The notes under the pieces are model-generated. The model ran no database searches, was not told where the DNA came from, and saw only the letters and a program-made list of their open reading frames with translations. Source: Candidatus Hodarchaeota archaeon (lineage in GTDB: Archaea; Asgardarchaeota; Heimdallarchaeia; Hodarchaeales; Hodarchaeaceae). Taken from it: a stretch of 64,000 nt of DNA. Position 1 is the first letter of the stretch; the number at the start of each line of letters is the position of its first letter. Made by a program: the position numbers and the translations under genes. Of the stretch, positions 5,279 through 43,491 are shown piece by piece. The stretch spans positions 33,962 to 97,961 of the forward strand of contig JAEOTC010000121.1 in NCBI GenBank assembly GCA_016840035.1, read 5' to 3'.

Positions 5279-6142
5279 CTACATTCTCTTTTTGAGAAAA
5301 GTGCCGTTCCGATACTCTTCAAATGCTATTCGTAGCTCTTCTTCTGTATTCATAACAATGGGGCCAGCCCATGCAATAGGTTCATTTATCGGCTTTCCTG
5401 AAATTAATAGGAAGCGTACTCCAGTATCCTCATTTGTTGTAACTTGTACAGTTTCTCCTTCTCTTTTGAATATAACTAAATTGTCTTGCTTCGTATATTC
5501 CTGACTATTAGGAGTAAATCGTCCTTTTCCCTCGAAAATATAAGCAAAAACCGTGTATCCATCATTAACTCCATGTTTAAAGGTTACTCCAGGGGGAATT
5601 TCAACATCTAGATAATGAGGTTCTGTAATGATCTCTTTTACTGGGCCTTCGGTTTCTTTATAGTGGCCAGCAAGTACACGTACTTGAGTACCATCTTCTT
5701 CATTTATTACAGGAATGCTAGATGCGTGGATATCTTGGTATCGCGGATCGATTAGTTTTGATACTCTTGGGAGGTTTACCCATAACTGAAATCCTGATAG
5801 CTTTCCTTTTGTTTGTTGGGGCATCTCTTCATGAATAATACCGCTTCCAGCAGTCATCCATTGAATATCACCTTCACTTAAAGCTCCTGAGTTTCCAAGA
5901 CTGTCTTTATGCATGATTAAACCTTCTCGCATGTAAGTAACAGTCTCAATTCCGCGATGAGGATGCCAAGGAAACCCCGCTATGTAATCATTGGGATTGT
6001 CAGATCCAAATGCATCAAGAAGTAAGAAAGGATCGAGTAATTTCGTCTCTTGATGGCTGAAAACCCTTTTTAATTTAACACCCGCCCCATCCATGGTAGG
6101 AATACTTGATTGAATTTTATCAATAGTTCGAAATCTAATCAT
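5279..6142 (-). CDS. pirin-family bicupin protein
   Basis: FPWHPHRGIETVTYMREG ... QWMTAGSGIIHEE matches the pirin N-terminal cupin metal site (HxH...H...E). Confidence 0.85.
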   Translation of the reverse strand: MIRFRTIDKIQSSIPTMDGAGVKLKRVFSHQETKLLDPFLLLDAFGSDNPNDYIAGFPWHPHRGIETVTYMREGLIMHKDSLGNSGALSEGDIQWMTAGSGIIHEEMPQQTKGKLSGFQLWVNLPRVSKLIDPRYQDIHASSIPVINEEDGTQVRVLAGHYKETEGPVKEIITEPHYLDVEIPPGVTFKHGVNDGYTVFAYIFEGKGRFTPNSQEYTKQDNLVIFKREGETVQVTTNEDTGVRFLLISGKPINEPIAWAGPIVMNTEEELRIAFEEYRNGTFLKKRM

Positions 6143-20905: not shown

Positions 20906-21442
20906 ATGAAAAAGCTTTCTGACTCCGAGTTCATTGTTATTTCAGAGATATTTAGAAAGCCATCTATTACATTAAACGAATTAGCAGAAGTTTTAGAGAA
21001 CGCAAAAAATAGGAAAGTTAGAGAACCGGATAAAGCAGTTGATTTAAGATCTGTCTCTAAATTTAAATCTGTTGGATATAAAAAAATCAGAGAAGGATTA
21101 GAGAAATTAGCAACCGATTTTCGTCTTGATTTATCATTGCAAGCTGATAATCCTGAAGAGAAAAAAGAGGAAGAAAGCATTAATCACATTCTACTCAGAA
21201 ATGGAATTTTACGCGGTTTTGACTTTCGAGCAAATGCCATGGTATATTTATTTTATATTCTTGAGGAGCAGTCAATCCTTCCTTGGCAGGCTCATCATTG
21301 CAGACCAGAGTGTGAAACCGATTGTAATCACATTCTTGATAGTCTCCGCTCTGAACATGGATTACCCTCGACAAACATACAGTTGGAAGTACTCGAATTA
21401 ATTGAAATTACTATTAAAGAAATAATAGCTCGTGAAACGTGA
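20906..21442 (+). CDS. hypothetical protein, possible HTH
   Basis: Soluble 178-aa protein. Its stop lies 5 nt before the next gene's ATG. Contains a His/Cys cluster HHCRPECETDCNH. Confidence 0.5.
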   Translation: MKKLSDSEFIVISEIFRKPSITLNELAEVLENAKNRKVREPDKAVDLRSVSKFKSVGYKKIREGLEKLATDFRLDLSLQADNPEEKKEEESINHILLRNGILRGFDFRANAMVYLFYILEEQSILPWQAHHCRPECETDCNHILDSLRSEHGLPSTNIQLEVLELIEITIKEIIARET

Positions 21443-21447
21443 TTAAA

Positions 21448-22200
21448 ATGTCTGATCTCCCACATATAATTGGTTCTGATGTTCCTTCTTCACCACCAGA
21501 AAAACCACGAATCATTCGTCCTAGTCGGAATTTTTTGTATAAAAACTATTTTCTTTTCTTATTAACGGCCATTCTTTTTATTGCGTCAATGGTAATTTTC
21601 TTCTTTATTATTAATACCTTTATTGGCAGTTCTCAAGGCCCAGGAACCCAAAAACAATTAACAGATATGTCAGTCCTCATGACAGTGGGATTTTCATTAC
21701 TCTGGGTGATTCTTTTTGTAATTTATGGAGTGGGGATGTTTATTTATGTAAAACAAATGGTATTCATCGTACATGGAAGTGAAATTGTGGTTAAGAAGGG
21801 ACTCATTAATAAGACGGAAAAACATGTTCCATACAGAACTGTTACTCACATCAGTATGCGATCAGGACCATTTGACAGATTATTTAACATTGGAACTGTA
21901 GAAATCCAAACAGCTGGTGGACCAAGTTCTTCTCTAGAATCAATGGCGGAAGAAAAACTCGAAGGAATAATCATTTATCGAGAAGTCCGTGATTATATCC
22001 TGACCCAGCTTCGTCTTTTCCAACAACAACAAAAAGGAGAGATATCTTCTGATGAGTCTGCCATAATTCCCTCAAACGAAACTGATCTTTTAAACGCTCT
22101 CTTGGATATAAAAGTAATCCTAAAAAACAAGTTCGAGAGTTTAGAGGAGAAATTCAGTCAATTGTCTGACCAATTAAAAAATCAGAGGAAATCCTATTAG
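21448..22200 (+). CDS. membrane protein with bacterial-type PH (bPH_2/YdbT-like) domain and C-terminal coiled coil
   Basis: Two TM helices, then ...VVKKGLINKTEKHVPYRTVTHISMRSGPFDRLFNIGTVEIQTAGG, the bPH_2 pattern. ORF opens with GTG at 21439; ATG at 21448. Confidence 0.6.
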   Translation: MSDLPHIIGSDVPSSPPEKPRIIRPSRNFLYKNYFLFLLTAILFIASMVIFFFIINTFIGSSQGPGTQKQLTDMSVLMTVGFSLLWVILFVIYGVGMFIYVKQMVFIVHGSEIVVKKGLINKTEKHVPYRTVTHISMRSGPFDRLFNIGTVEIQTAGGPSSSLESMAEEKLEGIIIYREVRDYILTQLRLFQQQQKGEISSDESAIIPSNETDLLNALLDIKVILKNKFESLEEKFSQLSDQLKNQRKSY

Positions 22201-22247
22201 AAATTAACGTATGAGAAATAAATGTACCGTCTGATGTGTTCCTAAAA

Positions 22248-22706
22248 ATGTCAGCTAATAAAGATTCGGTAGAAGAACGAATTCTGATCGATTTAAATCC
22301 TGAGATTACTGCAAAGATAGATGTTTTAGTGGAAAAAGGATTATATCCTGATAAAAAGGAGTTTCTTGAACAAGCAATAAGAGCTCAATTAAATATCCAT
22401 CAGGAAACCTTTCAAGAGTTAGAAAGAGTACAAAATTTTGTAATGGGCATCGTGAATTTTTCTGCGGAGGATCTGGAAAAAACAGTAGCAAAAGGAAAGA
22501 AACGAGTTATTAAGGTTGTAGGACGGTTATCTTTCTCATCTAATGTTACTCCTGAGCTGATAGACCGTTCAATTGACAAAATTATCATTGCAGGAATTTT
22601 AAAAGCTCCTTCAAATGTTATGGAAACACTGAATTCTAAACGTTATAGTATTTTGGGATCAAAATATACAGAAAGTCATAGGTTAACTTCTAGAACGGAG
22701 GAATAG
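22248..22706 (+). CDS. putative ribbon-helix-helix (CopG/Arc-like) protein
   Basis: EERILIDLNPEITAKIDVLVEKGLYPDKKEFLEQAIRAQL reads as β-strand, helix, helix. ORF opens with GTG at 22236. Confidence 0.45.
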   Translation: MSANKDSVEERILIDLNPEITAKIDVLVEKGLYPDKKEFLEQAIRAQLNIHQETFQELERVQNFVMGIVNFSAEDLEKTVAKGKKRVIKVVGRLSFSSNVTPELIDRSIDKIIIAGILKAPSNVMETLNSKRYSILGSKYTESHRLTSRTEE

Positions 22707-22866: not shown

Positions 22867-23652
22867 ATGGAGAATTCAAAGATGAACCACCACAAAATAT
22901 CTAAAACGCGGATATTCCCTGTAAATACACAGATTCTCACCTTATTTCTAGTAACTTTAGTGATAATTTCTACTATCAGGATAATTGAAGCAAAACCACA
23001 AAAAACTTCGGAAAATATATTGGACGGTGTAATCAGTCAAGATGAATATTCATATTCACAGAGTACGGAAGATGGTAAATTTATTCTTTATTGGGAACCC
23101 ACAGATGAGAATACAATATTCTTCGCAATGCAAGCATTGACAACTGGTTATATGTCAATAGGAATTAACCCTTCTCAGCGAATGAAGGATGCAGATATGT
23201 ATTTCGGGTGGGTAGACTCAAATGGTTCAGTATTCATGATAGATGCCTTTGCAGTTGATGACATGGGTACTCATCCCCCAGATACTGAATTGGGTGGTAC
23301 AAATGATATTCTGGACTATAATGGGAGTGAAAATGCACAGACTACAATTATTGAATTTAAGAGACTAATAGTATCACCTGATTCAGAATATGATAATGCT
23401 ATTCCGATGGTAGGTGAAATCCCCATTATTTGGGCGTATGGAACTTCGGATAATTTTGAAGTTCACCATGGAGTTGTTAGCCGCGGTACAATGTTCTGGA
23501 GTCTAGAAGGGGCAAGTGTATTAAGGTTTGATTTCAGTCAACCCTTTATCTTGGGGCTAGCTTTTCTGATTACTTTAACAGGATTAGTAATCTATGTGGA
23601 TAGCAAAGGTCGTCCTACCAGTAACAACGAGAAGACAAACAGTGGTGAATAG
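22867..23652 (+). CDS. signal-peptide protein with C-terminal TM anchor, first gene of oxidase operon
   Basis: N-terminal hydrophobic signal/anchor and a C-terminal helix LGLAFLITLTGLVIYV. Stop is 2 nt before the subunit III-like gene. Function unknown; possibly an electron donor or DOMON-like. Confidence 0.5.
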   Translation: MENSKMNHHKISKTRIFPVNTQILTLFLVTLVIISTIRIIEAKPQKTSENILDGVISQDEYSYSQSTEDGKFILYWEPTDENTIFFAMQALTTGYMSIGINPSQRMKDADMYFGWVDSNGSVFMIDAFAVDDMGTHPPDTELGGTNDILDYNGSENAQTTIIEFKRLIVSPDSEYDNAIPMVGEIPIIWAYGTSDNFEVHHGVVSRGTMFWSLEGASVLRFDFSQPFILGLAFLITLTGLVIYVDSKGRPTSNNEKTNSGE

Positions 23653-23654
23653 CT

Positions 23655-25100
23655 ATGGCTGAATTACATCCTATCGTTTTACATTTTCATATTGCCAATC
23701 TGGCATTGAGTATCTTTACCTTACTACTTGCAATCACTGTGTCTGCATTTGAGCGAACAGATTTTTTTAATCGAAAGCTCGTAAAAAGAACATTTCGTGG
23801 TAGGGAGCTTTTGAGTCAGCAAACTTGCAGAACGTATGCTGATAAATTTGAATTTGTAGCATTCATGTTTCTTCTTTATGGAATTGTAACTTTTTTTGTA
23901 GCAGGAGTTGCAGGTTTTCTAGATGCCTCAGGAAATATTGGGATTGGGGAAATTAATCTAGATAATCTTCTCTTAGGGATATCAGAAGCAAGTCTCAGCT
24001 CAATACTTGGTTATAAAGTTATATATTCCATTATTGGAGTCTCCTACTTCCTCTTCGCAGCGCTTATCCGCATATATTTTGCCAGTTACCGCAAAGAAAG
24101 AATTTTTTCACAACATCCATTATATTGGATAGTCCTTCTCTTAAGTCAAATTCTTGGTTACATTCTTTTAACGCTCGTTTCTGGAGCTGGAGCAATTAGA
24201 GTTTATGGTGGAACCTTAATTTCTGATATTCCAATCTTTGGGGAGTTCTTACCTAATGGATCACTGGATCCTACCCCCATCGTCCTTTTGGGTACTGTAT
24301 TAATCGTCTTCCTCATTATCATTGCTGGTTTTTCAAAGAAACCTCCAGAAATCGAACCTCCTCACGAAGGAGAGCATGAAGAACATGAAATAACTCTTTG
24401 GCCTGCAGCACTAGCATTCGGCACAGTCTTTGTTGCAGCTGCTATCATTAACTTTACTGATGGCAACGAATTAGCAGCTTTCGGTTTCTTCTGGACATTT
24501 TTTATTGTACTGATTGGTTTCATCTTTAATGAAGCATTTAAACAAGATTTGTTTAGAAGACCACGTGAAGGATGGATTTGGTTATTCCTTGGGAGTGAAG
24601 TGATTCTATTCTCTATGATAATTGGGACAAGTTTCGGTCTAAGAGTTGCGTCTGGGAGTAATTGGCCTGATCAGAGTCAGATTCTAGATATCCCTCTAAC
24701 AGCAATTAATACATTTATCTTAATAATTAGTAGTTTTACTATGGTGAAATCGGTAGATGCAATACAGCAAGGTAAACAAAAGTTATCGCGAGATTATCTT
24801 CTCGCAACTGCGGGATTGGGAACACTATTCCTTGGTATTCAACTAACAGAATATCTAGAGTTGTTTGCACATCATTTTACACCAACTACGAACCTATTTG
24901 GATCCACATTTTATGTCCAAACAGGCCTTCATGGAGCTCACGTATTCTTCGGTGTCCTTCTAGTTATCTTTACAACACTGAGAGCTCATCAAGGTGGATT
25001 TACCAAAGAAAATCACGGCAGTTTAGAGTTAGTTGGGCTCTATTGGCATTTCGTTGATCTTGTATGGATTGTATTATTTACATTAGTATATCTAATATAG
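23655..25100 (+). CDS. heme-copper oxidase subunit III-like protein, extended (481 aa)
   Basis: C-terminus LHGAHVFFGVLLVIFTTLRAH...GLYWHFVDLVWIVLF matches the conserved end of COX III/CyoC. N-terminal half carries extra helices. Confidence 0.75.
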   Translation: MAELHPIVLHFHIANLALSIFTLLLAITVSAFERTDFFNRKLVKRTFRGRELLSQQTCRTYADKFEFVAFMFLLYGIVTFFVAGVAGFLDASGNIGIGEINLDNLLLGISEASLSSILGYKVIYSIIGVSYFLFAALIRIYFASYRKERIFSQHPLYWIVLLLSQILGYILLTLVSGAGAIRVYGGTLISDIPIFGEFLPNGSLDPTPIVLLGTVLIVFLIIIAGFSKKPPEIEPPHEGEHEEHEITLWPAALAFGTVFVAAAIINFTDGNELAAFGFFWTFFIVLIGFIFNEAFKQDLFRRPREGWIWLFLGSEVILFSMIIGTSFGLRVASGSNWPDQSQILDIPLTAINTFILIISSFTMVKSVDAIQQGKQKLSRDYLLATAGLGTLFLGIQLTEYLELFAHHFTPTTNLFGSTFYVQTGLHGAHVFFGVLLVIFTTLRAHQGGFTKENHGSLELVGLYWHFVDLVWIVLFTLVYLI

Positions 25101-25132
25101 AAGAGAAATTGATTGAATGGGTGAAATAAAAA

Positions 25133-25786
25133 TTGAAAATAAAAACCAAAGTCTCGCTAGCTAGTGTACTATTTGGATTATTCTTTGCAGGACCAGTTAT
25201 TTCAGGGAGAGCTTCCACGGCTCAATCTACATATACCTCTCAGATTGAGTTTTTATTCCTCCTTGTTGTGCTGGTATCAATTTTAATTGCTTCTATAGTT
25301 TTTGGATTATTGATATACATAATAATCCGCTTTAGAGAAGGAAACACAAATACTGTAAGAAAACCGATCCAAAACGGAATGCGCTTGGAAATCGGTTGGA
25401 TAATATTCGCCACGATAATTGTAGTTTCCCTCTTTGCTGCAAGCTTACCCGCAACTAGTTCGTATTTTACAGAGCGAGATGATTATGACGAAGAAATCCG
25501 TGTTGTTGCATATCAGTATAACTTCACATTTACCAAAGAAAATGGGAATACAACAACAGGATTTGTCGAAATTGAAGTAAATAGAGTATATATGCTTAAT
25601 ATTACTTCTATCGATGTAATACATTCATTTTATGTCCATGAACTGAGTATAAAGCTTGATATGGTTCCAGGGCGTTACAATATTGTATATTTGCAAGTTC
25701 TGGTGCCGGGAACTTATGAAGTTCATTGTGCGGAATATTGTGGATTTGGACACTATATCATGGAAGCGAGGATAATCGTAAAGTAA
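25133..25786 (+). CDS. heme-copper oxidase subunit II (CuA)
   Basis: Two N-terminal helices plus a cupredoxin domain with CuA ligands H...CAEYCGFGHYIM. Apparent TTG start. Confidence 0.85.
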   Translation: MKIKTKVSLASVLFGLFFAGPVISGRASTAQSTYTSQIEFLFLLVVLVSILIASIVFGLLIYIIIRFREGNTNTVRKPIQNGMRLEIGWIIFATIIVVSLFAASLPATSSYFTERDDYDEEIRVVAYQYNFTFTKENGNTTTGFVEIEVNRVYMLNITSIDVIHSFYVHELSIKLDMVPGRYNIVYLQVLVPGTYEVHCAEYCGFGHYIMEARIIVK

Positions 25787-25802
25787 ATAAGAGGAAATTA
25801 AT

Positions 25803-27482
25803 ATGAGCTCTCACAGTAGTATAATTAAAGACGGTCAATTCAAACTTTTTCCGCTCTTTGTAGGCATTCCGTTTGCAATAATTGTATTCATAGTTTTGAA
25901 GATTTTACTTGGTTCTTTTGGTTTCATACCAGAATTAGTTTTCTTATCTATTCTTAGTTTCACAATTTATTTGTCCACTTATGATAAAATTGATTATATT
26001 AGATTAATTGGAACCACAAATCATGCTGAAATTGGTATTCTGTATATTCTTTTAGCTATCGTAAGTGTATTTATTGGAGGGACGCTAGCTATAATCATGA
26101 GAACTGAACTGGCTTTTCCGGGTGCTACACTTGTAGATTCGGAACTGTATTCAGTTATTTTTACCGCTCACGGTACAATTATGATATTTATGGTTATTTT
26201 CCCATTAGGTGCAGGTTTTGGTAATTATCTTGTTCCTAGATTAATAGGAGCACCTGATATGTATTGGCCTAGGTGGAACAACGCAGCTTTATGGCTGCTA
26301 ATCCCTTCAGGGGTTTTAATCTTTACTGCACAATCGTCTGTGGGTTGGACATTGTACACTCCTTTAAGTGCTGAACTCTGGGGTGTGGGTGTAGATATGT
26401 GGATTATAGGAGTATTACTTGCGGGTGTTTCCTCTTTAGTGTCTGCGATTAATTTCATTATGACTGTTGCTACCATGCGTAAACCTGGATTGACATGGGG
26501 GAAGCTAGATCTTTTTAGTTGGTCCATTGTAGCCACATCAATTATCCAATTATGTGCCACTCCCTTAATAACAACTGGACTCGCTCTCTTACTCTCAGAT
26601 CGTATATTGGATACAGCATTCTTCTCAGCAGTAGGATTTGGAGTAGGTTCGTTTTTATGGCAACATGTGTTCTGGAGTTATTCTCATCCTGCGGTTTATA
26701 TTATGATTCTTCCTGCGATGGGATTAACTTCCCTTATGGTTTCAAAGTTTTCTAGAAATGAAATCTTTGGATACGAGCTAATGGTAATATCTATGATGGC
26801 TATTGTCTTTCTTGGTTTCCTAGTGTGGGGTCACCATCAGTATACTCTTTATGGTGCAGCCACAGATGCGTTTACAACCACCTTGTTCTCCTTATTAACC
26901 TCATTAATAGCTGTACCTTCGGGAGTCAAAACTTTTAATTGGCTATTTACAATGTGGGGAGGTAATGTCAAGTTAGAGATCCCGATCGTGTTTCCGTTTG
27001 GTTTCATTATCGGGTTCGTCATTGGAGGAATAACTGGGGTTTGGTTGAACATTGTTCCAGTGGATATAATTGTTCATGATACAGCATTTGTGGTGGGTCA
27101 TTTTCATATGATCATTTTAGGAGGAGCACTTACTGCGCTTATTGGTGCCTTCTATAATTATTTCCCCGAAATAACTGGGAAAATGTATAATCGACCCCTT
27201 GCTTGGGTTCATTGTATCATGTGGATCATTGGTTTTTTGATAACATTTAATTCTATGATGATAGCAGGATTACATGGAATGCCTCGTAGATATTTCGATT
27301 ATTCAACATTTGGTAATGTTGATGTTCTCGCGTTTTGGAACTTTTTAGCGACCGTAGGTGCATATTTGATGTTCCTCTCTGGTGTAATCTTTGTAATCAA
27401 CATGATTTACAGCTTAAGTAAAGGTCCAGAAGCAGGCGATGATCCATTTAACCTATCACTTGATGAGGTCCCCACAGTTTAA
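25803..27482 (+). CDS. heme-copper oxidase subunit I
   Basis: WSYSHPAVYI, W..HHQYT (CuB His pair), HDTAFVVGHFHMII (heme a3/heme a His), and about 12 TM helices. Confidence 0.9.
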   Translation: MSSHSSIIKDGQFKLFPLFVGIPFAIIVFIVLKILLGSFGFIPELVFLSILSFTIYLSTYDKIDYIRLIGTTNHAEIGILYILLAIVSVFIGGTLAIIMRTELAFPGATLVDSELYSVIFTAHGTIMIFMVIFPLGAGFGNYLVPRLIGAPDMYWPRWNNAALWLLIPSGVLIFTAQSSVGWTLYTPLSAELWGVGVDMWIIGVLLAGVSSLVSAINFIMTVATMRKPGLTWGKLDLFSWSIVATSIIQLCATPLITTGLALLLSDRILDTAFFSAVGFGVGSFLWQHVFWSYSHPAVYIMILPAMGLTSLMVSKFSRNEIFGYELMVISMMAIVFLGFLVWGHHQYTLYGAATDAFTTTLFSLLTSLIAVPSGVKTFNWLFTMWGGNVKLEIPIVFPFGFIIGFVIGGITGVWLNIVPVDIIVHDTAFVVGHFHMIILGGALTALIGAFYNYFPEITGKMYNRPLAWVHCIMWIIGFLITFNSMMIAGLHGMPRRYFDYSTFGNVDVLAFWNFLATVGAYLMFLSGVIFVINMIYSLSKGPEAGDDPFNLSLDEVPTV

Positions 27483-27508
27483 TAAAGTAACCCTAGGAGA
27501 TAAAAAAG

Positions 27509-27850
27509 ATGGTAACACAAGTTGAAACACAAGATACTCATGAGTATATTAAACGGCCGTATTTCTTAGTTTTTCTAATGCTGGGGTTTTTGACGGTTCT
27601 TGAACTGAATGTTGGATTTATTTCTGATATAGCAGGAGAAGGATCAAATGTTGAGGGATTTATTAATTTAGCGCTAATTACATTAGCAATTCTCAAAGCT
27701 TATCTTGTTGCTGCATTTTTTATGGGAATTAAATATCAAGATAATCCCAAGGTGGTTTGGGGGGTAATGTTTGGGATTCCTATGTTCATAGCATTACCAG
27801 TAGTTGTAATCCCTGCCTTAGGGACAATTGTCTATCTTTGTGGAATATAA
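27509..27850 (+). CDS. small 3-TM membrane protein, possible oxidase subunit IV-like
   Basis: 113 aa, three helices, placed between subunit I and SCO1 as prokaryotic subunit IV genes are. Confidence 0.45.
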   Translation: MVTQVETQDTHEYIKRPYFLVFLMLGFLTVLELNVGFISDIAGEGSNVEGFINLALITLAILKAYLVAAFFMGIKYQDNPKVVWGVMFGIPMFIALPVVVIPALGTIVYLCGI

Positions 27851-27877
27851 TATAAAGTGTATAATCGATGTGTAGGT

Positions 27878-28546
27878 ATGGAACAAAGCACTGTAGTCGG
27901 AACAATTATAGGATTTATGATTCTAGCTGGAATTGGGTCTGCTTTCATCCTCTATCCCTTAAGTCAAAATCAAGTATTACCCGTTATTAAACCCGCACCA
28001 GAATTTAGCTTAGTAAACCAGGATAATGAAACTGTGGACTTACAGTCATTTTCAGGAAAGGTTATAATGCTGGGTTTCCTTTATACTCAATGTACTGATG
28101 ATTTATGCTCACTGATGACTCAAGATTTCAAAACACTCCAAACCTTACTTGGATCCTCATTTGGTATGGATACTATGCTTATTTGTATTTCATTAGATCC
28201 ATTATTTGATACTCCTACGGTATTAAGAAACTACGCTCTATCCAATGGGGTTAATCTAAGTGGGTGGCAATTTCTGACGGCCTATGAATTAGATACAATC
28301 CAAAAGGTTGTTGATGATTACGGAGTGTTGTCTTATGTCAATGAATTTGAGGGATTGGTAAATACAACTGAAAATAACACCACCTTCAATCTAAAGATCA
28401 GTCATGGTAATGATACTCAACCGAGTATCCTAATCCATTCTTGGGTGAGTATGCTAATAGATCAAGATCTTTTGATACGAAAGGTATATACTCGTGTAAG
28501 CTGGGTTGTGAGCGCTGCACTTGAGGATATGAGGAGTTTATTGTAA
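27878..28546 (+). CDS. SCO1/SenC-family copper chaperone (thioredoxin fold)
   Basis: N-terminal anchor, CxxxC motif YTQCTDDLC, and ISLDPLFDTPTVLRNYA as in SCO1/SenC. ORF opens with GTG at 27857. Confidence 0.7.
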   Translation: MEQSTVVGTIIGFMILAGIGSAFILYPLSQNQVLPVIKPAPEFSLVNQDNETVDLQSFSGKVIMLGFLYTQCTDDLCSLMTQDFKTLQTLLGSSFGMDTMLICISLDPLFDTPTVLRNYALSNGVNLSGWQFLTAYELDTIQKVVDDYGVLSYVNEFEGLVNTTENNTTFNLKISHGNDTQPSILIHSWVSMLIDQDLLIRKVYTRVSWVVSAALEDMRSLL

Positions 28547-28567: not shown

Positions 28568-29584
28568 CTATTTCTTTTTCTTTCTTGAAAGTACAGTAAC
28601 CATTGCTAGTAGTCCTAAACCAAGTGAGATAATGGGGAATTCATATCCAGAAATTTCTTTTTCATCCGTAAAGGTAATTACAAATGGTTTTGCTGATTCA
28701 TTTCCGATTATTGGATCATCAAAGGCGGGAGAGAATAGATGAGTATCTACTGTTTTATTAAATAATCCATAATCTCTATTATCCCAGTGAAGGTGTGCAA
28801 ATACAGCCAATTCTGAAGGAAGGGTTCCTGCTTCTTTATTTGACAAGACATACTCATTGATATCTACATATAGATCAGTATTGACTCCTTGTTTCAATGG
28901 AATATGTCGTCTTCCAACCATTGGGCCTAAACCACTGTCGTTGATATGAATTACAAGCCATGCAGGTCCAGGAACAATGACTTGATCAATGAAAACTTTA
29001 GCGTTTGTTGTGTTCACATCTTGATCACTTACGATTATTGTGGTAGAAAAGGTCTCTGTGCTCGAAAATTGTTCTACGGCCTCTACACTATTTTGATCCT
29101 CCAGAATGAGGTCCGCTCCGTCAGGCTCAAACATCATATTCATATTCGTATCATTATAAAGTTTGGCGACTAGCTGAGTAGTTCTCCCCATTAGGGGTAA
29201 AGTTATTCTGACATAAAGGGTGTGGTTAACTCCTGAATCGGAACTGGTGAGGATTTTTGGAGATATCTGGGTATGATTATGACTCATCCCCACATCCTCC
29301 ATCGTTGAACTATATCCAAGTAAATCGCTAGTTGAATTATAAATTGCTACAAAACCCATATGATGGACATTTACTCTTACTACTACCTGATCATCAACTA
29401 TAGGTTGATCTTTTACTATAAAATCAAACCCAACATACTCTGTTACAGTTTTTGAAATAGTTATCGTACTTGAATTTTGATTTATCGAAAATAAAATCAT
29501 TACAAATAGAATTAAAGATAAGTACTTACTGTGTCTCATAAATACCGCCAATTTACCTTTTATGTATCTAACTAATAAAATCAA
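28568..29584 (-). CDS. secreted surface protein with C-terminal TM anchor and KKKK tail
   Basis: Signal peptide, about 280-aa β-rich ectodomain with NxS/T sequons, then C-terminal ...EFPIISLGLGLLAMVTVLSRKKKK. Confidence 0.55.
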   Translation of the reverse strand: MILLVRYIKGKLAVFMRHSKYLSLILFVMILFSINQNSSTITISKTVTEYVGFDFIVKDQPIVDDQVVVRVNVHHMGFVAIYNSTSDLLGYSSTMEDVGMSHNHTQISPKILTSSDSGVNHTLYVRITLPLMGRTTQLVAKLYNDTNMNMMFEPDGADLILEDQNSVEAVEQFSSTETFSTTIIVSDQDVNTTNAKVFIDQVIVPGPAWLVIHINDSGLGPMVGRRHIPLKQGVNTDLYVDINEYVLSNKEAGTLPSELAVFAHLHWDNRDYGLFNKTVDTHLFSPAFDDPIIGNESAKPFVITFTDEKEISGYEFPIISLGLGLLAMVTVLSRKKKK

Positions 29585-31334: not shown

Positions 31335-33077
31335 TTGAAATCCTCTAAAGACCTTACAGATGAAAGTTCAGACACTGGATTGGATTTTATCCGAAAAATA
31401 GTGGAAGAAGATATAAGGAATAATAAAAATGAAGGACGAGTTCACACGCGTTTTCCTCCTGAACCAAATGGTTGGATGCATATCGGACATGCAATGGCAA
31501 TCTATCTCAGTTACAGCATTGCACAGGAATATAGTGGCCTTTTCAATTTACGCTTCGATGATACCGACCCATCAAAAGAAAGTATGGAGTATGTTGAAGC
31601 AATTAAAGAGGATATACAATGGTTAGGGGCGGATTGGGAAGATAGATTATATTTTGCATCAGATTATTTTGAAAAATTATATGATTTTGCCGTTGGGCTT
31701 ATTAAAGCTGGCAAAGCATATGTATGTGACCTAAATGTCGATGAAATTCGAGAACAAAGAGGATCTTTAACAGAACCGGGTGTTAATAGCCCCTTTAGAG
31801 ATAGATCAGTCGAGGAGAATCTTGACTTATTCAAGCGTATGCGTGAAGGTGAGTTTGAAGATGGTTCTCGAGTTTTAAGAGCAAAAGTGGATATGGCATC
31901 GCCAAACTTACTTATGCGAGATCCTATCATGTATCGGATAAAAAGAGTAAGTCATTATCGGACTGGAGATGACTGGATAATTTATCCTAGCTATGACTAT
32001 ACTCATGGAGAGTCTGATGCGATTGAAGGAATTACCCATTCTCTATGCTCACTTGAGTTTGAAACCCATAGACCATTATACGACTGGTTTGTAGATGAAC
32101 TACTAGCCATAGGTAAAATAGAACATAAACCCAGACAAATAGAGTTTTCTCGCTTAAATGTAACGTATACTATCACAAGCAAACGAAGACTATTAGAATT
32201 AGTCGACGGGGGGTACGTTTCTGGCTGGGATGATCCAAGAATGCCGATTCTTGCGGGATTGAGGAATCGTGGTTTTCCAGCAAGTGCTATTAGAATGTTC
32301 TTAGGAAAAGTGGGTGTGACTAAAAGGAAAAAGAATATTGATATGGGTCTATTAGAAGCCTGTGTGCGGGAAGAATTAGATCGTGATGCCAACCGTGTAA
32401 TGGCTGTTTTAAACCCATTAACAGTTATTCTTACCAACTATCCCGAAGGACAAGAGGAATATTTAGAAATACCTAATCATCCAAAAGATGAATCACGAGG
32501 TACTCGTAAAGTCCCGTTTTCAAAAGTCTTACTGATTGAGCGAGACGACTTTATGGAGGATCCTCCAAAGAAATTTTATCGACTAACGCTAGGTAGAGAA
32601 GTTCGATTACGAAATGCATACTTTATTAAATGTAATGATGTTGTTAAAGACAAATCCGGGAATATCGTTGAAGTTCATTGCACCTACGATCCTGAAACGA
32701 AAGGTGGATCTGCTCCTGATGGCAGAAAGGTGAGAGCTACAATTCATTGGGTGTCTAAATCGCATGCTCTTAAATCAGAAATTCGATTATACGATCGATT
32801 ATTTACCCGTGAAGACCCGATAGGGATTTCTGATTATAATCCGGACTCTTTAACGACAATTACTGGTTTTGTAGAACCTAGTGTAGGTGAAGCTGAACCT
32901 GGCACGCATTATCAATTTGAAAGACTAGGGTACTTCTTCACGAATTTACAGGAGTTCTCTAAAGACACGATTGTAATAAATCGAACCATAACGTTGCGTG
33001 ATACGTGGGCCAAAATCAAGAAACAACATTTATCAACAAGAAAGAAGGGTCAACGAAAACAAAAGAAAAAGAACTAG
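31335..33077 (+). CDS. glnS: glutaminyl-tRNA synthetase, bacterial type
   Basis: Collinear with E. coli GlnRS over the whole length as recalled from memory: [17 protein letters not shown] (HIGH), [78 protein letters not shown]. Apparent TTG start. Extra K-rich C-terminal tail. Confidence 0.9.
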
Positions 33078-33632: not shown

Positions 33633-33710
33633 TGGCAGCCCCATCCAGATTTGAACTGGAGTCATCAGATTCAGAGCCTGAGGTGCTAAACCAAACTACA
33701 CTATGGGGCT
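33633..33710 (-). tRNA. tRNA-Gln (anticodon CUG), CCA encoded
   Basis: Reverse complement folds as a cloverleaf. Acceptor AGCCCCA/TGGGGCT, D-stem GTGT/GCAC, anticodon stem TCAGG/TCTGA, loop CU-CUG-AA, T-arm TCCAG-TTCAAAT-CTGGA, discriminator G, then CCA. An oligo-T tract follows the 3' end. Confidence 0.85.
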
Positions 33711-33860: not shown

Positions 33861-34115
33861 ATAGCAATTTTGTGTAAATTTTACCTTTGATTGGTTGAAA
33901 TAATGACCTCTATTTAAATATTATTTCCAGATAGGAAGAATTATGAAATTTTATGTGACTTTCGAATTATTTATTGAACTATATTTTTGTCGTAACTTCT
34001 GAGTTTTAAGTTGTTGTATTATTGTAGAGTGAGTTAATCAGTATTATCACTTGTAGAAACCTTTTTCGCATAAGAATACATAAAAGAAAATTAAGGAAGG
34101 CTTAATTTGAGAACG

Positions 34116-35222
34116 ATGAAACGTAATAGCGATCTTGAAATTACTCCTGAAGAGTTTCATAACCAGATTCGATCAGGAAACGTTCCACTCATTATTGATG
34201 TGCGGAATTCTCAAGCATTTACTGATTGGAATATATTTAATAGCATTAATTTTCCTGTCATGCAGCTTTTAGGGGCAAAATCATACCCAAAGGAATTTAA
34301 TGACAAGGAGATTGTTTTGATATGCGGGAAGGGAAATGATTCTTATTTTGCAGCCGAAAAATTATCTTCTCAGGGTTTCAAAGCGAAATCTCTTGTGGGT
34401 GGTATGACTGCATGGAACCATGTTTTTGATACCATAGAAGTCACAAAAGATACAGATTTGAAATTGATACAATTACGAAGAGTTGCTAAAGGGTGTTTAT
34501 CGTATTTCCTTTATTCAAATGGAGAGGCAATTGTAATAGATCCTGCTCATGACGTTTCACCCTATATTCAAATGGCCGAAGAGAAAGGAGTAGCGATTAG
34601 CACAATTATTGACACACATCTACATGCAGACCATATTTCAGGTGCTAGGGAACTCTCTCGAAGAACTGGAGCAGAATATTTTGTGAATCCCAAAGATCCT
34701 TATGATTTTGAATTTAATCCCATCAATGAAGATACGTCATTTACTATTGAGAATAGTGTTTTACTTCAGGCAATGAGCACACCTGGTCATACACCTGGAA
34801 GTACCTCATTTCGGATGAAAGATTTAGGGATTTTAACGGGTGATATATTATTTATTGATGGTATTGGTAGACCAGATTTGGCTGATAAATCAGCTGAATT
34901 TGCAAAAGACCTATACTCCTCTCTCAATTCTCGTCTGGCAACACTACCTGAAAATATGTTCTACGCCCCAGCACATCATGGAAAATTCTCTCTAGAACAC
35001 TTTAATAACCCACTCATCTCTAACATACAGACCTTTAAAGAAAATACAATACTTGAGAAAGACGAAAAAGCCTTTATAGAGTATGCAGTCCAAACTTCAC
35101 AACAAACGAAACAACCCTCCTCACATCAAACGATTCGAGAAGTAAATTCAGGAAAGTTAGTACTAAGTCCTCTTCAGATTGGCCAACTCGAGGTTGGTCC
35201 AAATCGATGTGCTATCGGTTAA
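34116..35222 (+). CDS. rhodanese-domain / metallo-β-lactamase-fold fusion (persulfide dioxygenase-like)
   Basis: N-terminal rhodanese with candidate active-site Cys loop LICGKGND. C-terminal MBL motif IDTHLHADH with downstream His/Asp. ORF opens with TTG at 34107. Confidence 0.75.
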   Translation: MKRNSDLEITPEEFHNQIRSGNVPLIIDVRNSQAFTDWNIFNSINFPVMQLLGAKSYPKEFNDKEIVLICGKGNDSYFAAEKLSSQGFKAKSLVGGMTAWNHVFDTIEVTKDTDLKLIQLRRVAKGCLSYFLYSNGEAIVIDPAHDVSPYIQMAEEKGVAISTIIDTHLHADHISGARELSRRTGAEYFVNPKDPYDFEFNPINEDTSFTIENSVLLQAMSTPGHTPGSTSFRMKDLGILTGDILFIDGIGRPDLADKSAEFAKDLYSSLNSRLATLPENMFYAPAHHGKFSLEHFNNPLISNIQTFKENTILEKDEKAFIEYAVQTSQQTKQPSSHQTIREVNSGKLVLSPLQIGQLEVGPNRCAIG

Positions 35223-39836: not shown

Positions 39837-41540
39837 ATGATGACAATTTTCGAAGATGCCGAGAAACTGTGGAAAACTTATGTTGGGCATAGAAAATGGG
39901 CCTCCACAGTTTTTGGTGAAACTTGGTATGTACGGTATCCTGTAGATACTATAGGAACAGAAGAAGCAAAAACTTACAAACGATCATTATTCTTAGGTGA
40001 TGATTCTGTGCACGCGTGGGAGGCGACTGGTGTCCGTCACAAGATTATACAAAGATTAATCGATAGTACCGAATGGAAGATTCGTCCATGGTATGGAGAT
40101 CTCGGATTTTTTGCGGATCAAATAAGATTCCTGCCTCCAATGCCAGAGAGTGAACTGGATTTTGTTGTAAGAAAATCTCTGTTGGCCGAAGATCACTTCT
40201 CCAGTCGAGACCGGTTTAAGGAAACTCGAATAGAACTTCTTAGCTTTTTAGATCCAGACTTGACAGAAAGGCCTGAACAATCGTTTTTATATGATATTAA
40301 TAGACCAGAGGACATTGCAAAGAAGTATTCTAAATGCCAGATAGAACTGTACGGATTATTATTCATTATAATAACAAAACTTTATACATTGACTGATGAG
40401 GAGATTTTGGAAGTTATAGATTTTCTTTTTGATGTGGAAACTGCTGATCAGTTATTGGTACGTCGATTCATTCATCCAAATAAAGATGATAACAGACCAT
40501 TCATTGGAGAGCAAAATCCTCATACAAAGTTAAAACCAAATTTCCTCCTTCGGTATATTGCAGGGGAAAATCGTGAATTTTACCCCTTTCGAATCTTTCA
40601 TCTATGGTTACGTTTATTATTAGCATTTGACGCGAAGGCTGTTACTAAGATAGAAGATATGGAAATCGATATTGTTGATACATTTTCAGATATTGAAACA
40701 ATGAAGGAAGCTCTGCTATACGCTATTAAATTAAACCAGTTTAATACAGTAAAAGATAATTTTAAGGCTAGATTAAGAAGTGAATATGCACAACAACGAA
40801 ATTATAGTGGGTATATGTCGGAATTTATTCATATCCTCCAGAGTCAAAAAGAACTCTTTATGGATAAACCAAATTCTCTTGTACTATCACTAATCGATTC
40901 TGCAAATTACCAACCTCAGTTTTTATGTCGAGAATTAGGGGATACAATGACCTCTTCAGTCTTGAAGAATCTAGGGAGACAAGTCCCCGAACCTGAGGGT
41001 GTAAGTAAGATTCAATCAAGATTGATTCTTAATCGAAGAATACACAATCTTGAAAAACATGTTTTAACTGATGAAATCGAAGCTGAACTCTTGGAGAAAG
41101 TAACTAGTATGTTTACATACCTTGGGAGTGATACAGAGGAGCAAGCAATTGAAGATACTTTTAAATTAACCTATGACACGTTGGTTCCAAGAGGAGAAGT
41201 TTACTTTAGTGAATTAGAAAAAGAAGTCAAAGCTGCGCTTACTGAAACGGGTGACATGGATATTAGAAAGGAATTGATGGAAACTACGGATACACCGCAG
41301 AATTTAGCTAAACAATATGGAAATAAAGCTTTAAATTTAGTTGATGATGATGCTTCCATTGCAGAAATTTACTCAAGTATTTTAGCATTAAAAAGCACAG
41401 AATTGGCTTTTGGAGGAGGAAAGATTTCTATTCTGCAACAGAGGAAGATAACCCAATCATTTATTGATTTATTTAAGGAAGAGTTTAGATTTCTAGAATT
41501 ATTAACGAAAATCTCCACTGAAGGAGTACAGGAGGAATAA
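39837..41540 (+). CDS. large soluble hypothetical protein (567 aa), first gene of GTPase operon
   Basis: No TM segments and no enzymatic motif recognised. Its stop is 4 nt before the next ATG. Confidence 0.6.
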   Translation: MMTIFEDAEKLWKTYVGHRKWASTVFGETWYVRYPVDTIGTEEAKTYKRSLFLGDDSVHAWEATGVRHKIIQRLIDSTEWKIRPWYGDLGFFADQIRFLPPMPESELDFVVRKSLLAEDHFSSRDRFKETRIELLSFLDPDLTERPEQSFLYDINRPEDIAKKYSKCQIELYGLLFIIITKLYTLTDEEILEVIDFLFDVETADQLLVRRFIHPNKDDNRPFIGEQNPHTKLKPNFLLRYIAGENREFYPFRIFHLWLRLLLAFDAKAVTKIEDMEIDIVDTFSDIETMKEALLYAIKLNQFNTVKDNFKARLRSEYAQQRNYSGYMSEFIHILQSQKELFMDKPNSLVLSLIDSANYQPQFLCRELGDTMTSSVLKNLGRQVPEPEGVSKIQSRLILNRRIHNLEKHVLTDEIEAELLEKVTSMFTYLGSDTEEQAIEDTFKLTYDTLVPRGEVYFSELEKEVKAALTETGDMDIRKELMETTDTPQNLAKQYGNKALNLVDDDASIAEIYSSILALKSTELAFGGGKISILQQRKITQSFIDLFKEEFRFLELLTKISTEGVQEE

Positions 41541-41544
41541 TTTT

Positions 41545-43491
41545 ATGGTAGACTTGTCAAATATTGAAAATCAATTAGAAGAAGAATATGGAGAATTAGG
41601 CGTCAATTATCTTTTTCCACAATTAGACATCATTCGTTCTGCACGTAATCTACCATCAAATATTGAAGATGCACAATTAATGACTGAGAAACTCTTCATG
41701 TCGTATCAAATGATTGAGCAATGGTTAGCTCCAGTAATCGTTCCTATTAATGACAATTTGTTTGGTTTAGAAACACATCTACATGATCTACAAACCCAAA
41801 TAAAGCATTATATTGCACAAGATGAGATTTCATATTGGAACGATGTTGTCAACAGTGAAAATGCTAGCGTCAAGTCTCTATTTTCTGATATTAGTTCGTT
41901 ACGCAAATATATTCTAGACCAACGTCTGAAATTACTCCAATCTGCTCATCGTCAAGAATTACCTGAACTCTTCGGTTTGGTTCTTTGGCCTTATAGTGAA
42001 TATACTGATGTCAAGGATGCGATCAATGATGTTCGGAATATCTATTTCGGACCGAATAATCACTATCGTAAACAAAATGTGTTAACAGATGCTCTAATGC
42101 TAACTGCTTTATCAGAGGATGTTTTAACTCACAAAACTCAAACAAAACAATCATTCCATCATATTGATAGTTTAATCGAGACCTCACTAACCTTCCGACG
42201 TATTGAAGAGCAATTTGAATGGTCAAAATATCAACGGGATCCCAGTGATGGACATTTTACTGAAGGTCAGGTGTTTTCGATCATGGATAGTTTGATGCCA
42301 GGATATCCACGTGATCAGCTGAGAAAAGGGTTGAATACTTTCTATGATTCATCATTAGATAAGTATCCTATCGGAAAATTTATTGCGTGGCTTTCTGATG
42401 TAATGCGAATGAAAACTATGAGTAAAAGTGAGGGGGATGATCAACCAGGAGAATTACGTTTGAAAAAAGAACATTTACTCGGCCTGGCTGTAATGGATAA
42501 ACATAGGAATAGTGAAATCCTCGGCAATATTGGGAATTTGCAGGGTACTTTTGACCGGATCCTTGCTCCATTTCATGAATTAAAACAAAATAACGCATTT
42601 ATGCAGAGTTCACAGTTCGTGATCGATAATGTCGTAGAAATTCCTTCACGAGCATGGATATACGATTATAGCGGTGTGGAAACAGAAATATTGCGATCAA
42701 CACTATTTATGTTGAGTGATCGTCAACCTAAATTTGATGTACTAGAAATTTGTCAAAAGCTCGCGAATATTGTATTATCTGGAAGAGTAGACAGAAATGA
42801 TTTGGTGGACGGTAATTATGTTCGCACAAATAAGTTACCTATTCGATTATGGAATTCTATAAGCGAGCAGTTAATGAAAATTCTTGAAGAAACACTCATT
42901 CACGAAGAGATTCACTCGGTAAGGCTTTTGAAAAAAATCTTCTCCAGTGAAGATACCACCTCACTAATTACTGCAAAGAAATTTGTACCAATCTTTCAGG
43001 TAAAGACAGATTTTAAACGCGGAATCTATCATGATGAGAAAGGATTCCAAGCTGAATCTATGAGCATTTGGGTTCGTTCAGGTTTTCATTTTGAATACCG
43101 TTATGCCCAAATGGCAGGTTATCCCTGGTTTTTTGATACTAATCTTTTACTTGAGTCTCTTGTTATTGAAGCATTATCCCTTCCGTCCTTTAAGGTTTCA
43201 TCTCTACATGAGAATGTCAAATTACGTCAGACAGTATTTATTGTCGATGATTTAACATACATAGTATATTACGACCCGACTCCTGAAGGAATTTCGGTAT
43301 TGGCATTTAAAGAAGTTGATATCATGGACGAAGCAGGTATTGATCCTGTGGAAATTGTGTATCGACCACATAAATACCTTTCTTTAGGACCAGACAAAAA
43401 TAATTTGCAATTGGTCTTGGAAAATGCGCGTGCGAGCGACCCAAAGGACCTTATGACCGTTATTGGGAATATAAAATATAACTGGAGTTAG
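41545..43491 (+). CDS. large soluble hypothetical protein (648 aa), second gene of GTPase operon
   Basis: GGAGG lies 9 nt upstream of the ATG. No recognisable motif. Its stop is 5 nt before the GTPase ATG. Confidence 0.6.
   Translation: MVDLSNIENQLEEEYGELGVNYLFPQLDIIRSARNLPSNIEDAQLMTEKLFMSYQMIEQWLAPVIVPINDNLFGLETHLHDLQTQIKHYIAQDEISYWNDVVNSENASVKSLFSDISSLRKYILDQRLKLLQSAHRQELPELFGLVLWPYSEYTDVKDAINDVRNIYFGPNNHYRKQNVLTDALMLTALSEDVLTHKTQTKQSFHHIDSLIETSLTFRRIEEQFEWSKYQRDPSDGHFTEGQVFSIMDSLMPGYPRDQLRKGLNTFYDSSLDKYPIGKFIAWLSDVMRMKTMSKSEGDDQPGELRLKKEHLLGLAVMDKHRNSEILGNIGNLQGTFDRILAPFHELKQNNAFMQSSQFVIDNVVEIPSRAWIYDYSGVETEILRSTLFMLSDRQPKFDVLEICQKLANIVLSGRVDRNDLVDGNYVRTNKLPIRLWNSISEQLMKILEETLIHEEIHSVRLLKKIFSSEDTTSLITAKKFVPIFQVKTDFKRGIYHDEKGFQAESMSIWVRSGFHFEYRYAQMAGYPWFFDTNLLLESLVIEALSLPSFKVSSLHENVKLRQTVFIVDDLTYIVYYDPTPEGISVLAFKEVDIMDEAGIDPVEIVYRPHKYLSLGPDKNNLQLVLENARASDPKDLMTVIGNIKYNWS

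Follow-up and report, generated by a model that had tools for sequence, protein, structure and literature searches.

In a heme-copper oxidase operon of the Hodarchaeales, an order to which eukaryotes are more closely related than to any other known archaea, what its sequences indicate to be a complete, apparently functional O2 reductase comes with two co-inherited extra parts: a DOMON protein, which is a putative b-type cytochrome, and a hitherto unremarked DUF2231-type module on subunit III. The overall explanation towards which we lean somewhat is that of an A2-type oxidase with DOMON and the module as its electron-entry device to CuA. Respiration and detoxification of O2 each have a recent study in their favour for Hodarchaeales, the crux of the dispute being that no electron route to their cytochrome oxidase is known (Imachi et al.), and the DOMON/module pair is a candidate for this missing link.

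Operons of this type (coxABC with coxD, SCO1, DOMON and a neighbouring GlnRS gene) have already been reported (Appler et al., 2024, 10.1101/2024.07.04.601786), so the core finding was known. The Hodarchaeales/Kariarchaeaceae Complex IV operons in that report share lineage, gene set and A-type with the operon described here, which matches their layout including GlnRS; however, the report makes no mention of a CoxC roughly doubled by an N-terminal DUF2231-type module, nor of DOMON and the fusion being inherited as a unit.

Locus, host and conservation

The operon occupies positions 22867-28546 on the + strand of the 64-kb stretch of DNA that was analysed, referred to here as the window. Its six co-directional + strand ORFs encode, in order, DOMON, a 481-aa 'subunit III', subunit II, subunit I, subunit IV and SCO1; they confirm the six genes of an earlier note on this DNA, with intergenic gaps of 2, 32, 16, 26 and 6 nt that correct the earlier range of 2-30 nt to 2-32 nt. 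The GlnRS gene lies at 31335-33077 of the window. Of the two genes noted near its end, the PerR is a Fur/PerR-family gene on the - strand (62255-62632), and the catalase is a partial one, spanning 62834 to the window end.

The nearest relatives are Hodarchaeales MAGs, with 84-91% identity in CoxI, and synteny with the Hodarchaeales contig L001 takes in the six operon genes and their flanks (DUF7282, GlnRS and rhodanese-MBL genes). Together with the Ras-family GTPases encoded in the same window and an even GC content of ~35% across it, these matches establish that the host is an Asgard archaeon, and the bacterial contaminant considered in the earlier note is dismissed. Its other concern, loss of ligands through pseudogenisation, has likewise fallen away, as every ligand is kept and related MAGs retain the same genes; with the intact ORFs, this bears out the complete terminal-oxidase operon. 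A decaying or contaminant locus, be it an anaerobe's pseudogenised relic or a mis-binned bacterial contig, is thus extremely unlikely. Such a locus would agree with cultured Hodarchaeales being strict anaerobes (Imachi et al.) and with an odd N-terminal extension on the CoxI of this genome (~55 aa, absent from all sampled homologues), but not with the full set of ligand and channel residues, the strong conservation and synteny over several Hodarchaeales MAGs, the small GTPases in the flanks or the uniform GC; moreover, the cox genes are expressed in the cultured strain HC1 (Imachi et al.). The suggestion that the oxidase was acquired by HGT from a donor is without support in the literature, where two papers argue instead that Asgard archaea have long inherited it vertically and that it is akin to other archaeal oxidases.

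An A2-type core with an intact CuA site

Residues of subunit I (25803-27482, + strand; 559 aa; Pfam COX1 4e-137) were assigned by alignment to mammalian COX1 (8UGH; bovine COX1 numbering). All six His ligands that had been claimed for it, two for the low-spin heme, one for the high-spin heme and three for CuB, are present (H123, H295, H344, H345, H433 and H435), along with the cross-link Tyr299, and the D-channel residues N141, D152 and N159 and K-channel residue K376 correspond to bovine N80, D91, N98 and K319. Helix VI reads YSHPAV (from Y293), with Ala297 where A1-type enzymes have Glu; the mark of the A1 subtype, a helix VI motif GHPEV with its Glu, is therefore absent, while the A2 motif YSHPxV, in which Tyr-Ser stand in for that Glu, was found in 13/13 archaeal and bacterial relatives where the motif could be located. 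The A, B or C classification proposed as a check thus comes out as A-type, with the helix VI motif placing the enzyme in subtype A2.

Subunit II (25133-25786, + strand; 217 aa; Pfam COX2_TM and COX2) has two TM helices and the full CuA site that had been read in it, all six ligands being present (H164, C199, E201, C203, H207 and M210). This ligand set, H...CxExCx3Hx2M, is complete in 9/9 loci. The marks of a strict cytochrome c oxidase are lacking, with Tyr129 standing where the canonical electron-entry Trp (QWYW) would be and no CxxCH ORF within the 64-kb window; so too is the mark of the bo3/aa3-600 quinol oxidases, loss of the CuA ligands. We conclude that the operon very probably encodes an A2-type, CuA-containing, proton-pumping heme-copper reductase with intact D and K pathways, which would reduce O2 to water at heme-CuB and whose CuA would be matured by SCO1; subunits I, II, III and IV would form the catalytic core.

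The best PDB match of subunit II (2YEV) is the caa3 oxidase of Thermus thermophilus, which, like that of Rhodothermus marinus, also has YSHPxV instead of the Glu of A1 enzymes, a D- and a K-channel, and a CuA-bearing subunit II that is devoid of the QWYW entry Trp. In these enzymes, however, the donor heme sits in a c-type cytochrome domain joined to subunit II, whereas cytochrome c is absent from the Hodarchaeales operon, and it is to subunit I that subunit III is fused, rather than to a DUF2231 module with a separate DOMON upstream.

Characterised A-type quinol oxidases (bo3, aa3-600) have lost their CuA ligands. The intact CuA site, conserved in all sampled relatives, sets the Hodarchaeales enzyme apart from them and makes it improbable that it is a direct quinol oxidase (the Asgard "CyoABCD" of a 2025 preprint), oxidising quinol within its core subunits and having no need of DOMON and the module. 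NCBIfam scores point the same way, with CoxB/CtaD above CyoA/QoxA and CyoB/QoxB (for subunit II, 140 bits for CoxB vs 32-45 bits for CyoA/QoxA). The missing entry Trp does favour direct quinol oxidation, as does the finding that E. coli membranes with a Hodarchaeales four-subunit oxidase and no DOMON oxidised ubiquinol and not cytochrome c (2025 preprint); yet that assay had an endogenous bo3 background and residual activity in the mutant control, and one would in any case not expect horse-type cytochrome c to be the partner. That assay left out the DOMON gene, which on our reading of an entry device at CuA belongs in a heterologous reconstitution.

A DUF2231-type module fused to subunit III

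The 481-aa ORF (23655-25100, + strand), previously described as an enlarged subunit III-like protein, deserves that description only in its C-terminal half. Pfam COX3 (3e-23) covers aa 308-480 only, and the COX3 domain proper (aa ~247-481; 24375-25100, + strand), with about seven TM helices, matches subunit III of many solved oxidases in the PDB. It is fused in frame behind aa 1-240 (23655-24374, + strand), which correspond to nothing in any known COX3. This N-terminal module belongs to a rare family (16 matches among 1.84 billion representatives) and matches DUF2231 (PF09990) at E=0.002-0.006 and 18.6 bits, a score below the Pfam cut-off of 26.4. PF09990 is matched by 8/17 members of the module family (best 4.5e-6), the orthologue in lineage L011 has DUF2231 on record, and the DUF2231 motif HPxxxHF(P/H) has a counterpart in the window's module as H5-P-x3-H10-F-H12. 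It appears, from these similarities, that aa 1-240 form a divergent module distantly related to DUF2231. The fusion DUF2231::COX3 appears not to have been described before.

An AF2 model built from the alignment (pLDDT 85.9) gives the module five TM helices, and the positive-inside rule applied over the family gives an N-out/C-in topology. A conserved polar cluster (H5, H10, H12, D90 and K121) is found on the outer face; its conservation in stand-alone homologues of the module as well suggests that it has an intrinsic function. Those stand-alone homologues have no respiratory genes among their neighbours, and a PDB fold search with the module returned no match and no solved-structure relative. 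A b561-like di-heme conduit was considered and ruled out, as inspection of conserved residues found no paired His on separate helices of the module, the second-helix His pair being missing; the hhalign probability against the b561 domains of fused DOMON homologues was 0.3%.

The DOMON protein

The first gene (22867-23652, + strand; 261 aa) encodes an N-terminal signal/anchor, a DOMON domain at aa ~50-207 (Pfam DOMON 8.5e-24; 84.6 bits vs a cut-off of 32.7) and a C-terminal TM helix at aa ~222-245, in keeping with the anchored extracytoplasmic protein that it had been taken for. Of the two identities that had been put forward, DOMON-like and cupredoxin-like, the former holds and the latter does not, and the suggested role as electron donor is plausible, in agreement with the remark by Appler et al. 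(2024; bioRxiv 10.1101/2024.07.04.601786) that the neighbouring DOMON proteins are "putatively electron-transferring". Three residues, M106, H136 and H201, do not vary among 25 diverse homologues, cytochrome b561 fusions included, and the C-terminal TM helix matches the domain core in conservation (mean pairwise identity 0.53 vs 0.54).

We regard the protein as a putative b-type cytochrome, of the kind known from CYBDOM, AIR12 and CDH, with M106 and H201 as its axial ligands. No solved DOMON was alignable by sequence to it, so the ligands are assigned by analogy; a model-based prediction gives the DOMON heme of the plant CYBDOM protein HYP1 a Met/His pair (PMC10784544). CYBDOM proteins of eukaryotes and bacteria (e.g. 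Arabidopsis HYP1) and AIR12-type DOMONs likewise have Met and His at the expected b-heme positions. The CYBDOM architecture, an outward-facing DOMON with a multi-TM partner, also resembles that of the operon, and some close homologues of the operon's DOMON are true b561 fusions. The CYBDOM partner, however, is a b561 with two His pairs, whereas the membrane partner in the operon is not a b561 and has no such pairs, and CYBDOM electrons go to Fe(III) or another apoplastic substrate, the presumed acceptor here being the CuA of the oxidase.

Co-inheritance of DOMON and the fusion

Six independent lineages have an enlarged COX3 (the window, L001/2, L003/4, L011, L012 and L013), and in all six the DOMON gene lies directly 5' of it. 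In L011 and L013, DOMON, the enlarged COX3 and the COX4 that comes after it form a unit on the strand opposite COX2-COX1. DOMON is missing from the four sampled lineages whose COX3 is plain, at 253-296 aa (L005/6, L007, L014 and L015). Within the sampled lineages, DOMON and the DUF2231::COX3 fusion are thus a strictly co-inherited pair.

One of the plain lineages offers a different arrangement, as in L005/6 a cupredoxin gene comes after COX4. The enzyme of L005, a Heimdallarchaeia representative of the cupredoxin-fed archaeal oxidases (halocyanin/sulfocyanin type), is likewise A2-type and shares the core subunits, with a gene for an extracytoplasmic one-electron carrier next to the operon; but there the carrier is a blue-copper protein and COX3 has 253 aa, whereas the window's operon has no cupredoxin and instead DOMON and DUF2231::COX3.

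A proposed route of electrons to CuA

No c-type cytochrome or cupredoxin is encoded within the 64-kb window, and Imachi et al. describe the cultured Hodarchaeales strain HC1 as having no discernible Cox donor. We infer, at about an even chance, that DOMON is the electron donor to CuA. The membrane-anchored protein would bind one b-heme via Met106/His201 and hand electrons to CuA, replacing the cytochrome c or cupredoxin of other oxidases, and would cooperate with the 5-TM DUF2231-type module on the N-terminus of subunit III. Through its fusion to subunit III the module would be stoichiometric on the enzyme, with its His/His/Asp/Lys cluster at the outer membrane face, near the expected positions of the DOMON and CuA domains, and it may either dock the conserved TM helix of DOMON or itself bind an upstream reductant. 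Membrane quinol would be the most likely such reductant, although we hold this specific step to be less likely than not. Less likely again is that DOMON and module together form a self-contained quinol-to-CuA device, in which electrons would pass from quinol at the outer-face site to the DOMON b-heme and on to CuA; if true, the aerobic chain of Hodarchaeales would be short but complete, with no part for complex III, cytochrome c or cupredoxin, and the device would supply the electron route to Cox whose absence lies behind the dispute over oxygen respiration in these relatives of eukaryotes.

Some other homologues of DOMON carry thioredoxin-like Redoxin/AhpC-TSA domains as fusions, and those of Chloroflexota adjoin SOD, Usp and ferritin/rubrerythrin genes rather than oxidases, which points to roles in stress or redox maintenance. 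It is along these lines that DOMON and the module might be accessories of biogenesis or protection, handling copper or heme, reducing the CuA cysteines or SCO1, or dealing with extracytoplasmic reactive oxygen, while electrons come from a carrier encoded elsewhere. We consider this unlikely, though it finds further support in the presence of SCO1 in the same operon, in the possibility that the module's His/His/Asp cluster binds metal, and in the argument of Imachi et al. that Cox serves aerotolerance. A fusion to subunit III implies a permanent 1:1 association, which would be unusual for an assembly factor, and the DOMON-COX3-COX4 unit stays with the structural genes even where SCO1 is missing (L003) or on the other strand (L013). 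In addition, the gene encoded in the one sister operon is a cupredoxin, an electron carrier and not another chaperone, and the b561 fusions indicate an electron-carrying DOMON subfamily.

We know of no characterised heme-copper oxidase with a DOMON cytochrome donor or a COX3 fusion of this kind. Electron entry through DOMON and the module, if true, would give the superfamily a new way of taking in electrons and would be the first case in which a DUF2231-type domain has a function assigned to it.

Subunit IV and SCO1

The small 3-TM protein noted earlier is a subunit IV of the COX4_pro family (27509-27850, + strand; 113 aa; Pfam 9.3e-09). The last gene (27857-28546, + strand; 229 aa) had been called SCO1/SenC and matches that family (Pfam SCO1-SenC 1.9e-17; 63.9 bits vs a cut-off of 22.8); its product is a putative copper chaperone or thiol-disulfide oxidoreductase. 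His194 is present, while the Cys motif is C79-x4-C84 and not the canonical C-x3-C, with alignment to the B. subtilis Sco (1XZO/1ON4) placing a one-residue insertion inside CxxxC. The spacing is also C-x4-C in L001, and C-x5-C in L013.

Operon layout and host genome

ORF calling on the window confirmed the six co-directional open reading frames on the forward strand at 22867-28546 that an earlier note had described; their spacing is small, as claimed, but the gaps of 2, 32, 16, 26 and 6 nt break the upper limit of the 2-30 nt range proposed there. In gene order the products match Pfam DOMON (8.5e-24), COX3 (3e-23), COX2_TM and COX2, COX1 (4e-137), COX4_pro (9e-09) and SCO1-SenC (1.9e-17), and in NCBIfam scoring the CtaD/CoxA and CoxB models outranked those of quinol oxidases. 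Since the window reproduces the gene set, including the glutamine--tRNA ligase (GlnRS), of the operons reported by Appler et al. (bioRxiv 10.1101/2024.07.04.601786), the core finding is already published and this operon is a further example of a known operon type.

The closest relatives of subunit I (CoxI) are 84-91% identical and, where named, belong to Candidatus Hodarchaeales MAGs, with matches farther off in other Heimdallarchaeia; DOMON homologues give the same taxonomic picture, and GC content is ∼35% and even over all 64 kb. Synteny of the window with a comparison locus, L001 (GCA_054388555.1), runs through the operon and past it; shared are the genes for DOMON, the big COX3, COX2, COX1, COX4, SCO1, a DUF7282 protein, GlnRS and a rhodanese-metallo-beta-lactamase (MBL) protein. 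Given the Hodarchaeales relatives, this synteny and the Ras-family small GTPases encoded in the window, a bacterial contaminant is excluded.

Immediately upstream of the operon lie genes for a bPH_2 membrane protein (21439-22200, +) and an RHH_8 ribbon-helix-helix protein (22236-22706, +). From this location, and that of the L001 homologues of both ∼4.5 kb upstream of the operon, the RHH_8 protein could be a regulator of the oxidase genes. Convergent to SCO1 is the DUF7282 gene (28568-29584, −), whose product is anchored at its N-terminus and ends in a TM/KKKK tail; L001 has a counterpart of 70% identity at the equivalent position, which makes the gene a conserved neighbour. GlnRS is unusual in archaea. 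The gene near the oxidase operon (31335-33077, +; TIGR00440, 691 bits) encodes a bona fide enzyme and adjoins a tRNA-Gln(CTG) gene (33633-33710, −), and GlnRS is a consistent neighbour of Hodarchaeales cox genes (Appler et al.).

Catalytic core

Alignment to mammalian COX1 recovered all six histidine ligands claimed for CoxI (heme H123, H433 and H435; CuB H295, H344 and H345), together with the cross-link Tyr299, the D-channel residues N141, D152 and N159, and the K-channel Lys376. Helix VI reads Y-S-H-P-A-V-Y, with the A1-type Glu replaced by Ala297 and the His preceded by Tyr-Ser, which places the subunit in the A-type with an A2 signature, common to all sampled CoxI relatives. The CuA site of subunit II is full, as the earlier note held (H164, C199, E201, C203, H207 and M210), and the canonical QWYW electron-entry site reads Q-Y-N-F; the entry position is Tyr in six loci with DOMON and an enlarged COX3 (DOMON-type) and Phe in three loci with a normal-size COX3 and no DOMON (plain-type). 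The SCO1/SenC-type product aligns with B. subtilis Sco and keeps His194, but its Cys motif is C-x4-C (Cys79-Cys84) rather than C-x3-C, and homologues have C-x4-C in L001 (9971-10642) and C-x5-C in another DOMON-type locus, L013 (2680-3351).

With ligands, channels and CuA all kept, the reading as an oxygen reductase operon is supported: judged by sequence, the genes encode an A2-type O2 reductase that depends on CuA and looks functional, along with its copper chaperone. There is no sign of decay in the catalytic core, and we rejected a pseudogene reading. The intact CuA site also bears on the proposal that the core subunits oxidise quinol directly, a claim made for a Hodarchaeales enzyme produced in E. 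coli (10.1101/2025.11.07.685452); that proposal is weakened both by the site itself and by the assay background of the published work.

Two start sites deserve mention. The GTG start assigned to SCO1 (27857-28546) may lie upstream of the true one, because codon 8 is an ATG and the protein collection lacks this exact product. CoxI has a ∼55-aa N-terminal extension (25803-25985) unique to this genome, with two hydrophobic segments and a good GAGG ribosome-binding site ahead of it; the sampled homologues, even the one with 91% identity, all begin ∼20 aa ahead of the conserved LIGTTNH, with a conserved PFYKNW motif at their starts that the CoxI of the window does not have.

The DOMON protein

Between the DOMON-like and cupredoxin-like alternatives raised for the first gene, the Pfam match decides for DOMON, and the anchored extracytoplasmic architecture ascribed to it holds: an N-terminal signal/anchor, then the DOMON domain, then a TM helix at the C-terminus. 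Across 25 diverse homologues, M106, H136 and H201 do not vary. For HYP1, a plant CYBDOM protein, a prediction based on a structural model and on CDH templates places the DOMON b-heme on the Met/His pair M90/H174 (PMC10784544), to which M106/H201 would correspond by sequence context. Mean pairwise identity is 0.53 in the C-terminal TM helix, 0.54 in the globular core, 0.26 in the linker and 0.18 in the signal region; a TM helix as conserved as the core suggests that it has a specific intramembrane partner. Sequence and profile searches found no PDB relative of the DOMON protein, the profile matches to 4O6Y and 5ZLE being due solely to the b561 portion of fusion homologues.

Several homologues are fused to genuine cytochrome b561 and others to redoxin domains; the metagenomic fusions, to a 4-TM b561 or a CxxC redoxin/AhpC-TSA domain, are P0156, P0166, P0172, P0177 and P0179, and P0169-P0171, P0175 and P0195. 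Those with b561 are prokaryotic CYBDOM-like proteins. Lipoprotein-like Chloroflexota homologues (L016, 3442-6907; L017, 4882-6905) are encoded directly after Fe/Mn-SOD and Usp genes, which suggests an oxidative-stress role for this bacterial branch. The L016 neighbourhood also has ferritin/rubrerythrin, and in both loci an 81-82 aa ORF without a Pfam match follows DOMON.

A probable DUF2231-type module fused to subunit III

The earlier note described an enlarged 481-aa subunit III, which holds for aa ∼247-481, matching subunit III of solved oxidases, but not for aa 1-240, which form a separate module. AlphaFold, run on aa 1-240 with a 15-sequence alignment, gave a confident model with five TM helices (pLDDT 85.9, pTM 0.81); a single-sequence model of all 481 aa was too poor to use (pLDDT 47.5) and was left out. 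By the positive-inside rule the module is N-out/C-in across the family, which fits the textbook topology of COX3, whose domain starts in the cytoplasm.

The module of the window protein matches DUF2231 only weakly, but eight of 17 family members match it (best 4.5e-6), and DUF2231 is recorded for the L011 orthologue. The family is rare, with 16 matches among 1.84 billion representatives (two fused to COX3, most others stand-alone proteins of about 160-260 aa). A word-index homologue search with the module gave only two proteins, and a metagenome scan gave one locus. All three traceable stand-alone loci (L008-L010) are in Asgard MAGs; no respiratory genes were found near them, and their neighbours (MFS transporter, PRPP synthase, radical SAM, TetR) are uninformative.

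The conserved polar residues H5 (invariant), H10, H12 (mostly), D90 and K121 all lie at the outer membrane face, and E/D66 and R139 are buried. Because this His/His/Asp/Lys cluster is also conserved in the stand-alone homologues, it probably binds a ligand in its own right; quinol is the favoured candidate, with a metal or a single heme as alternatives. PDB sequence, profile and fold searches found no solved relative of the module. The idea that the module is a cryptic cytochrome b561 was tested and dropped, as no b561 relationship was found; a Caa3_CtaG, CopD or DUF420 assembly factor is without Pfam support, the one DUF420 match (E=0.006) falling on the COX3 domain and being treated as noise. 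The searchable literature has next to nothing on the domain, and the N-terminal module on CoxC/CyoC goes unmentioned in Appler et al. and in the 2025 oxidase/globin preprint (10.1101/2025.11.07.685452).

Electron input

Neither a CxxCH ORF nor a type-1 copper site besides CuA occurs in the 64-kb window. For the cultured Hodarchaeales HC1, Imachi et al. report no discernible electron donor for Cox and allow for uncharacterised proteins in that place; DOMON and the DUF2231-COX3 fusion together offer one concrete candidate. In this reading, electrons would reach CuA from the b-heme of the membrane-anchored DOMON, which would dock on, or be served by, the DUF2231 module; the fusion would hold this module on subunit III. 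Compared with characterised heme-copper oxidases, the pairing of a DOMON donor candidate with a subunit III fused to DUF2231 represents an uncharacterised variant, and the electron-donor question becomes directly testable. A rival to this electron-input reading makes both proteins accessory, biogenesis or oxidative-stress factors, in line with the SOD/Usp neighbourhoods and redoxin fusions of DOMON homologues.

DOMON lies directly ahead of an enlarged COX3 (480-499 aa) in the window, L001/2, L003/4, L011, L012 and L013, with the DOMON-COX3-COX4 unit on the strand opposite COX2-COX1 in L011 and L013; the plain-type loci L005/6, L007, L014 and L015 have a COX3 of 253-296 aa without DOMON, and L005/6 have a cupredoxin gene after COX4. 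In a rough NJ tree of CoxI the L005/L014 clade is nested among DOMON-type lineages, which is compatible with a swap of input modules, though weakly supported. No firm conclusion on gain or loss of the DOMON unit follows from so crude a tree, in which DOMON-type monophyly had a bootstrap of only 8/100. L011, the more distant DOMON-type locus, also has two cytochrome bd subunit-I-like genes (Cyt_bd_oxida_I; 1242-3872, −) ∼1.7 kb from its DOMON-COX3-COX4 unit and a heme O synthase (UbiA) at its other end, the whole forming a compact oxygen-reductase island.

Other genes in the window

Of the catalase and PerR placed by the earlier note at the end of the window, the first is a monofunctional heme catalase (62834-64000, +, running past the window end); the second, divergent to it (62255-62632, −), is a regulator of the Fur family that matches PerR models best, though all of these matches stay below cut-off. 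According to Imachi et al., Hodarchaeales obtained their catalase from Alphaproteobacteria. The rhodanese-MBL fusion (34107-35222, +), like persulfide dioxygenase/sulfurtransferase enzymes and kept near the operon in L001 at 78% identity, may be a further O2-dependent enzyme. Pirin-family proteins include quercetin 2,3-dioxygenases. A pirin gene (Pirin and Pirin_C) occurs at 5279-6142 (−), and quercetin 2,3-dioxygenases are listed among the O2-dependent enzymes of Heimdallarchaeia (Appler et al.).

The gene at 52573-53241 (+) encodes a Ras/Roc/Arf-like small GTPase (Ras 1.6e-40), and that at 43497-44600 (+) a protein with weaker Ras similarity; the latter gene follows two large ORFs of 567 and 648 aa (39837-43491) that match nothing in Pfam. 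Such genes belong to the 'eukaryotic signature' set typical of Asgard archaea. At 55793-60418 (+) the window encodes an MMPL/RND-family membrane protein of very large size (1541 aa).
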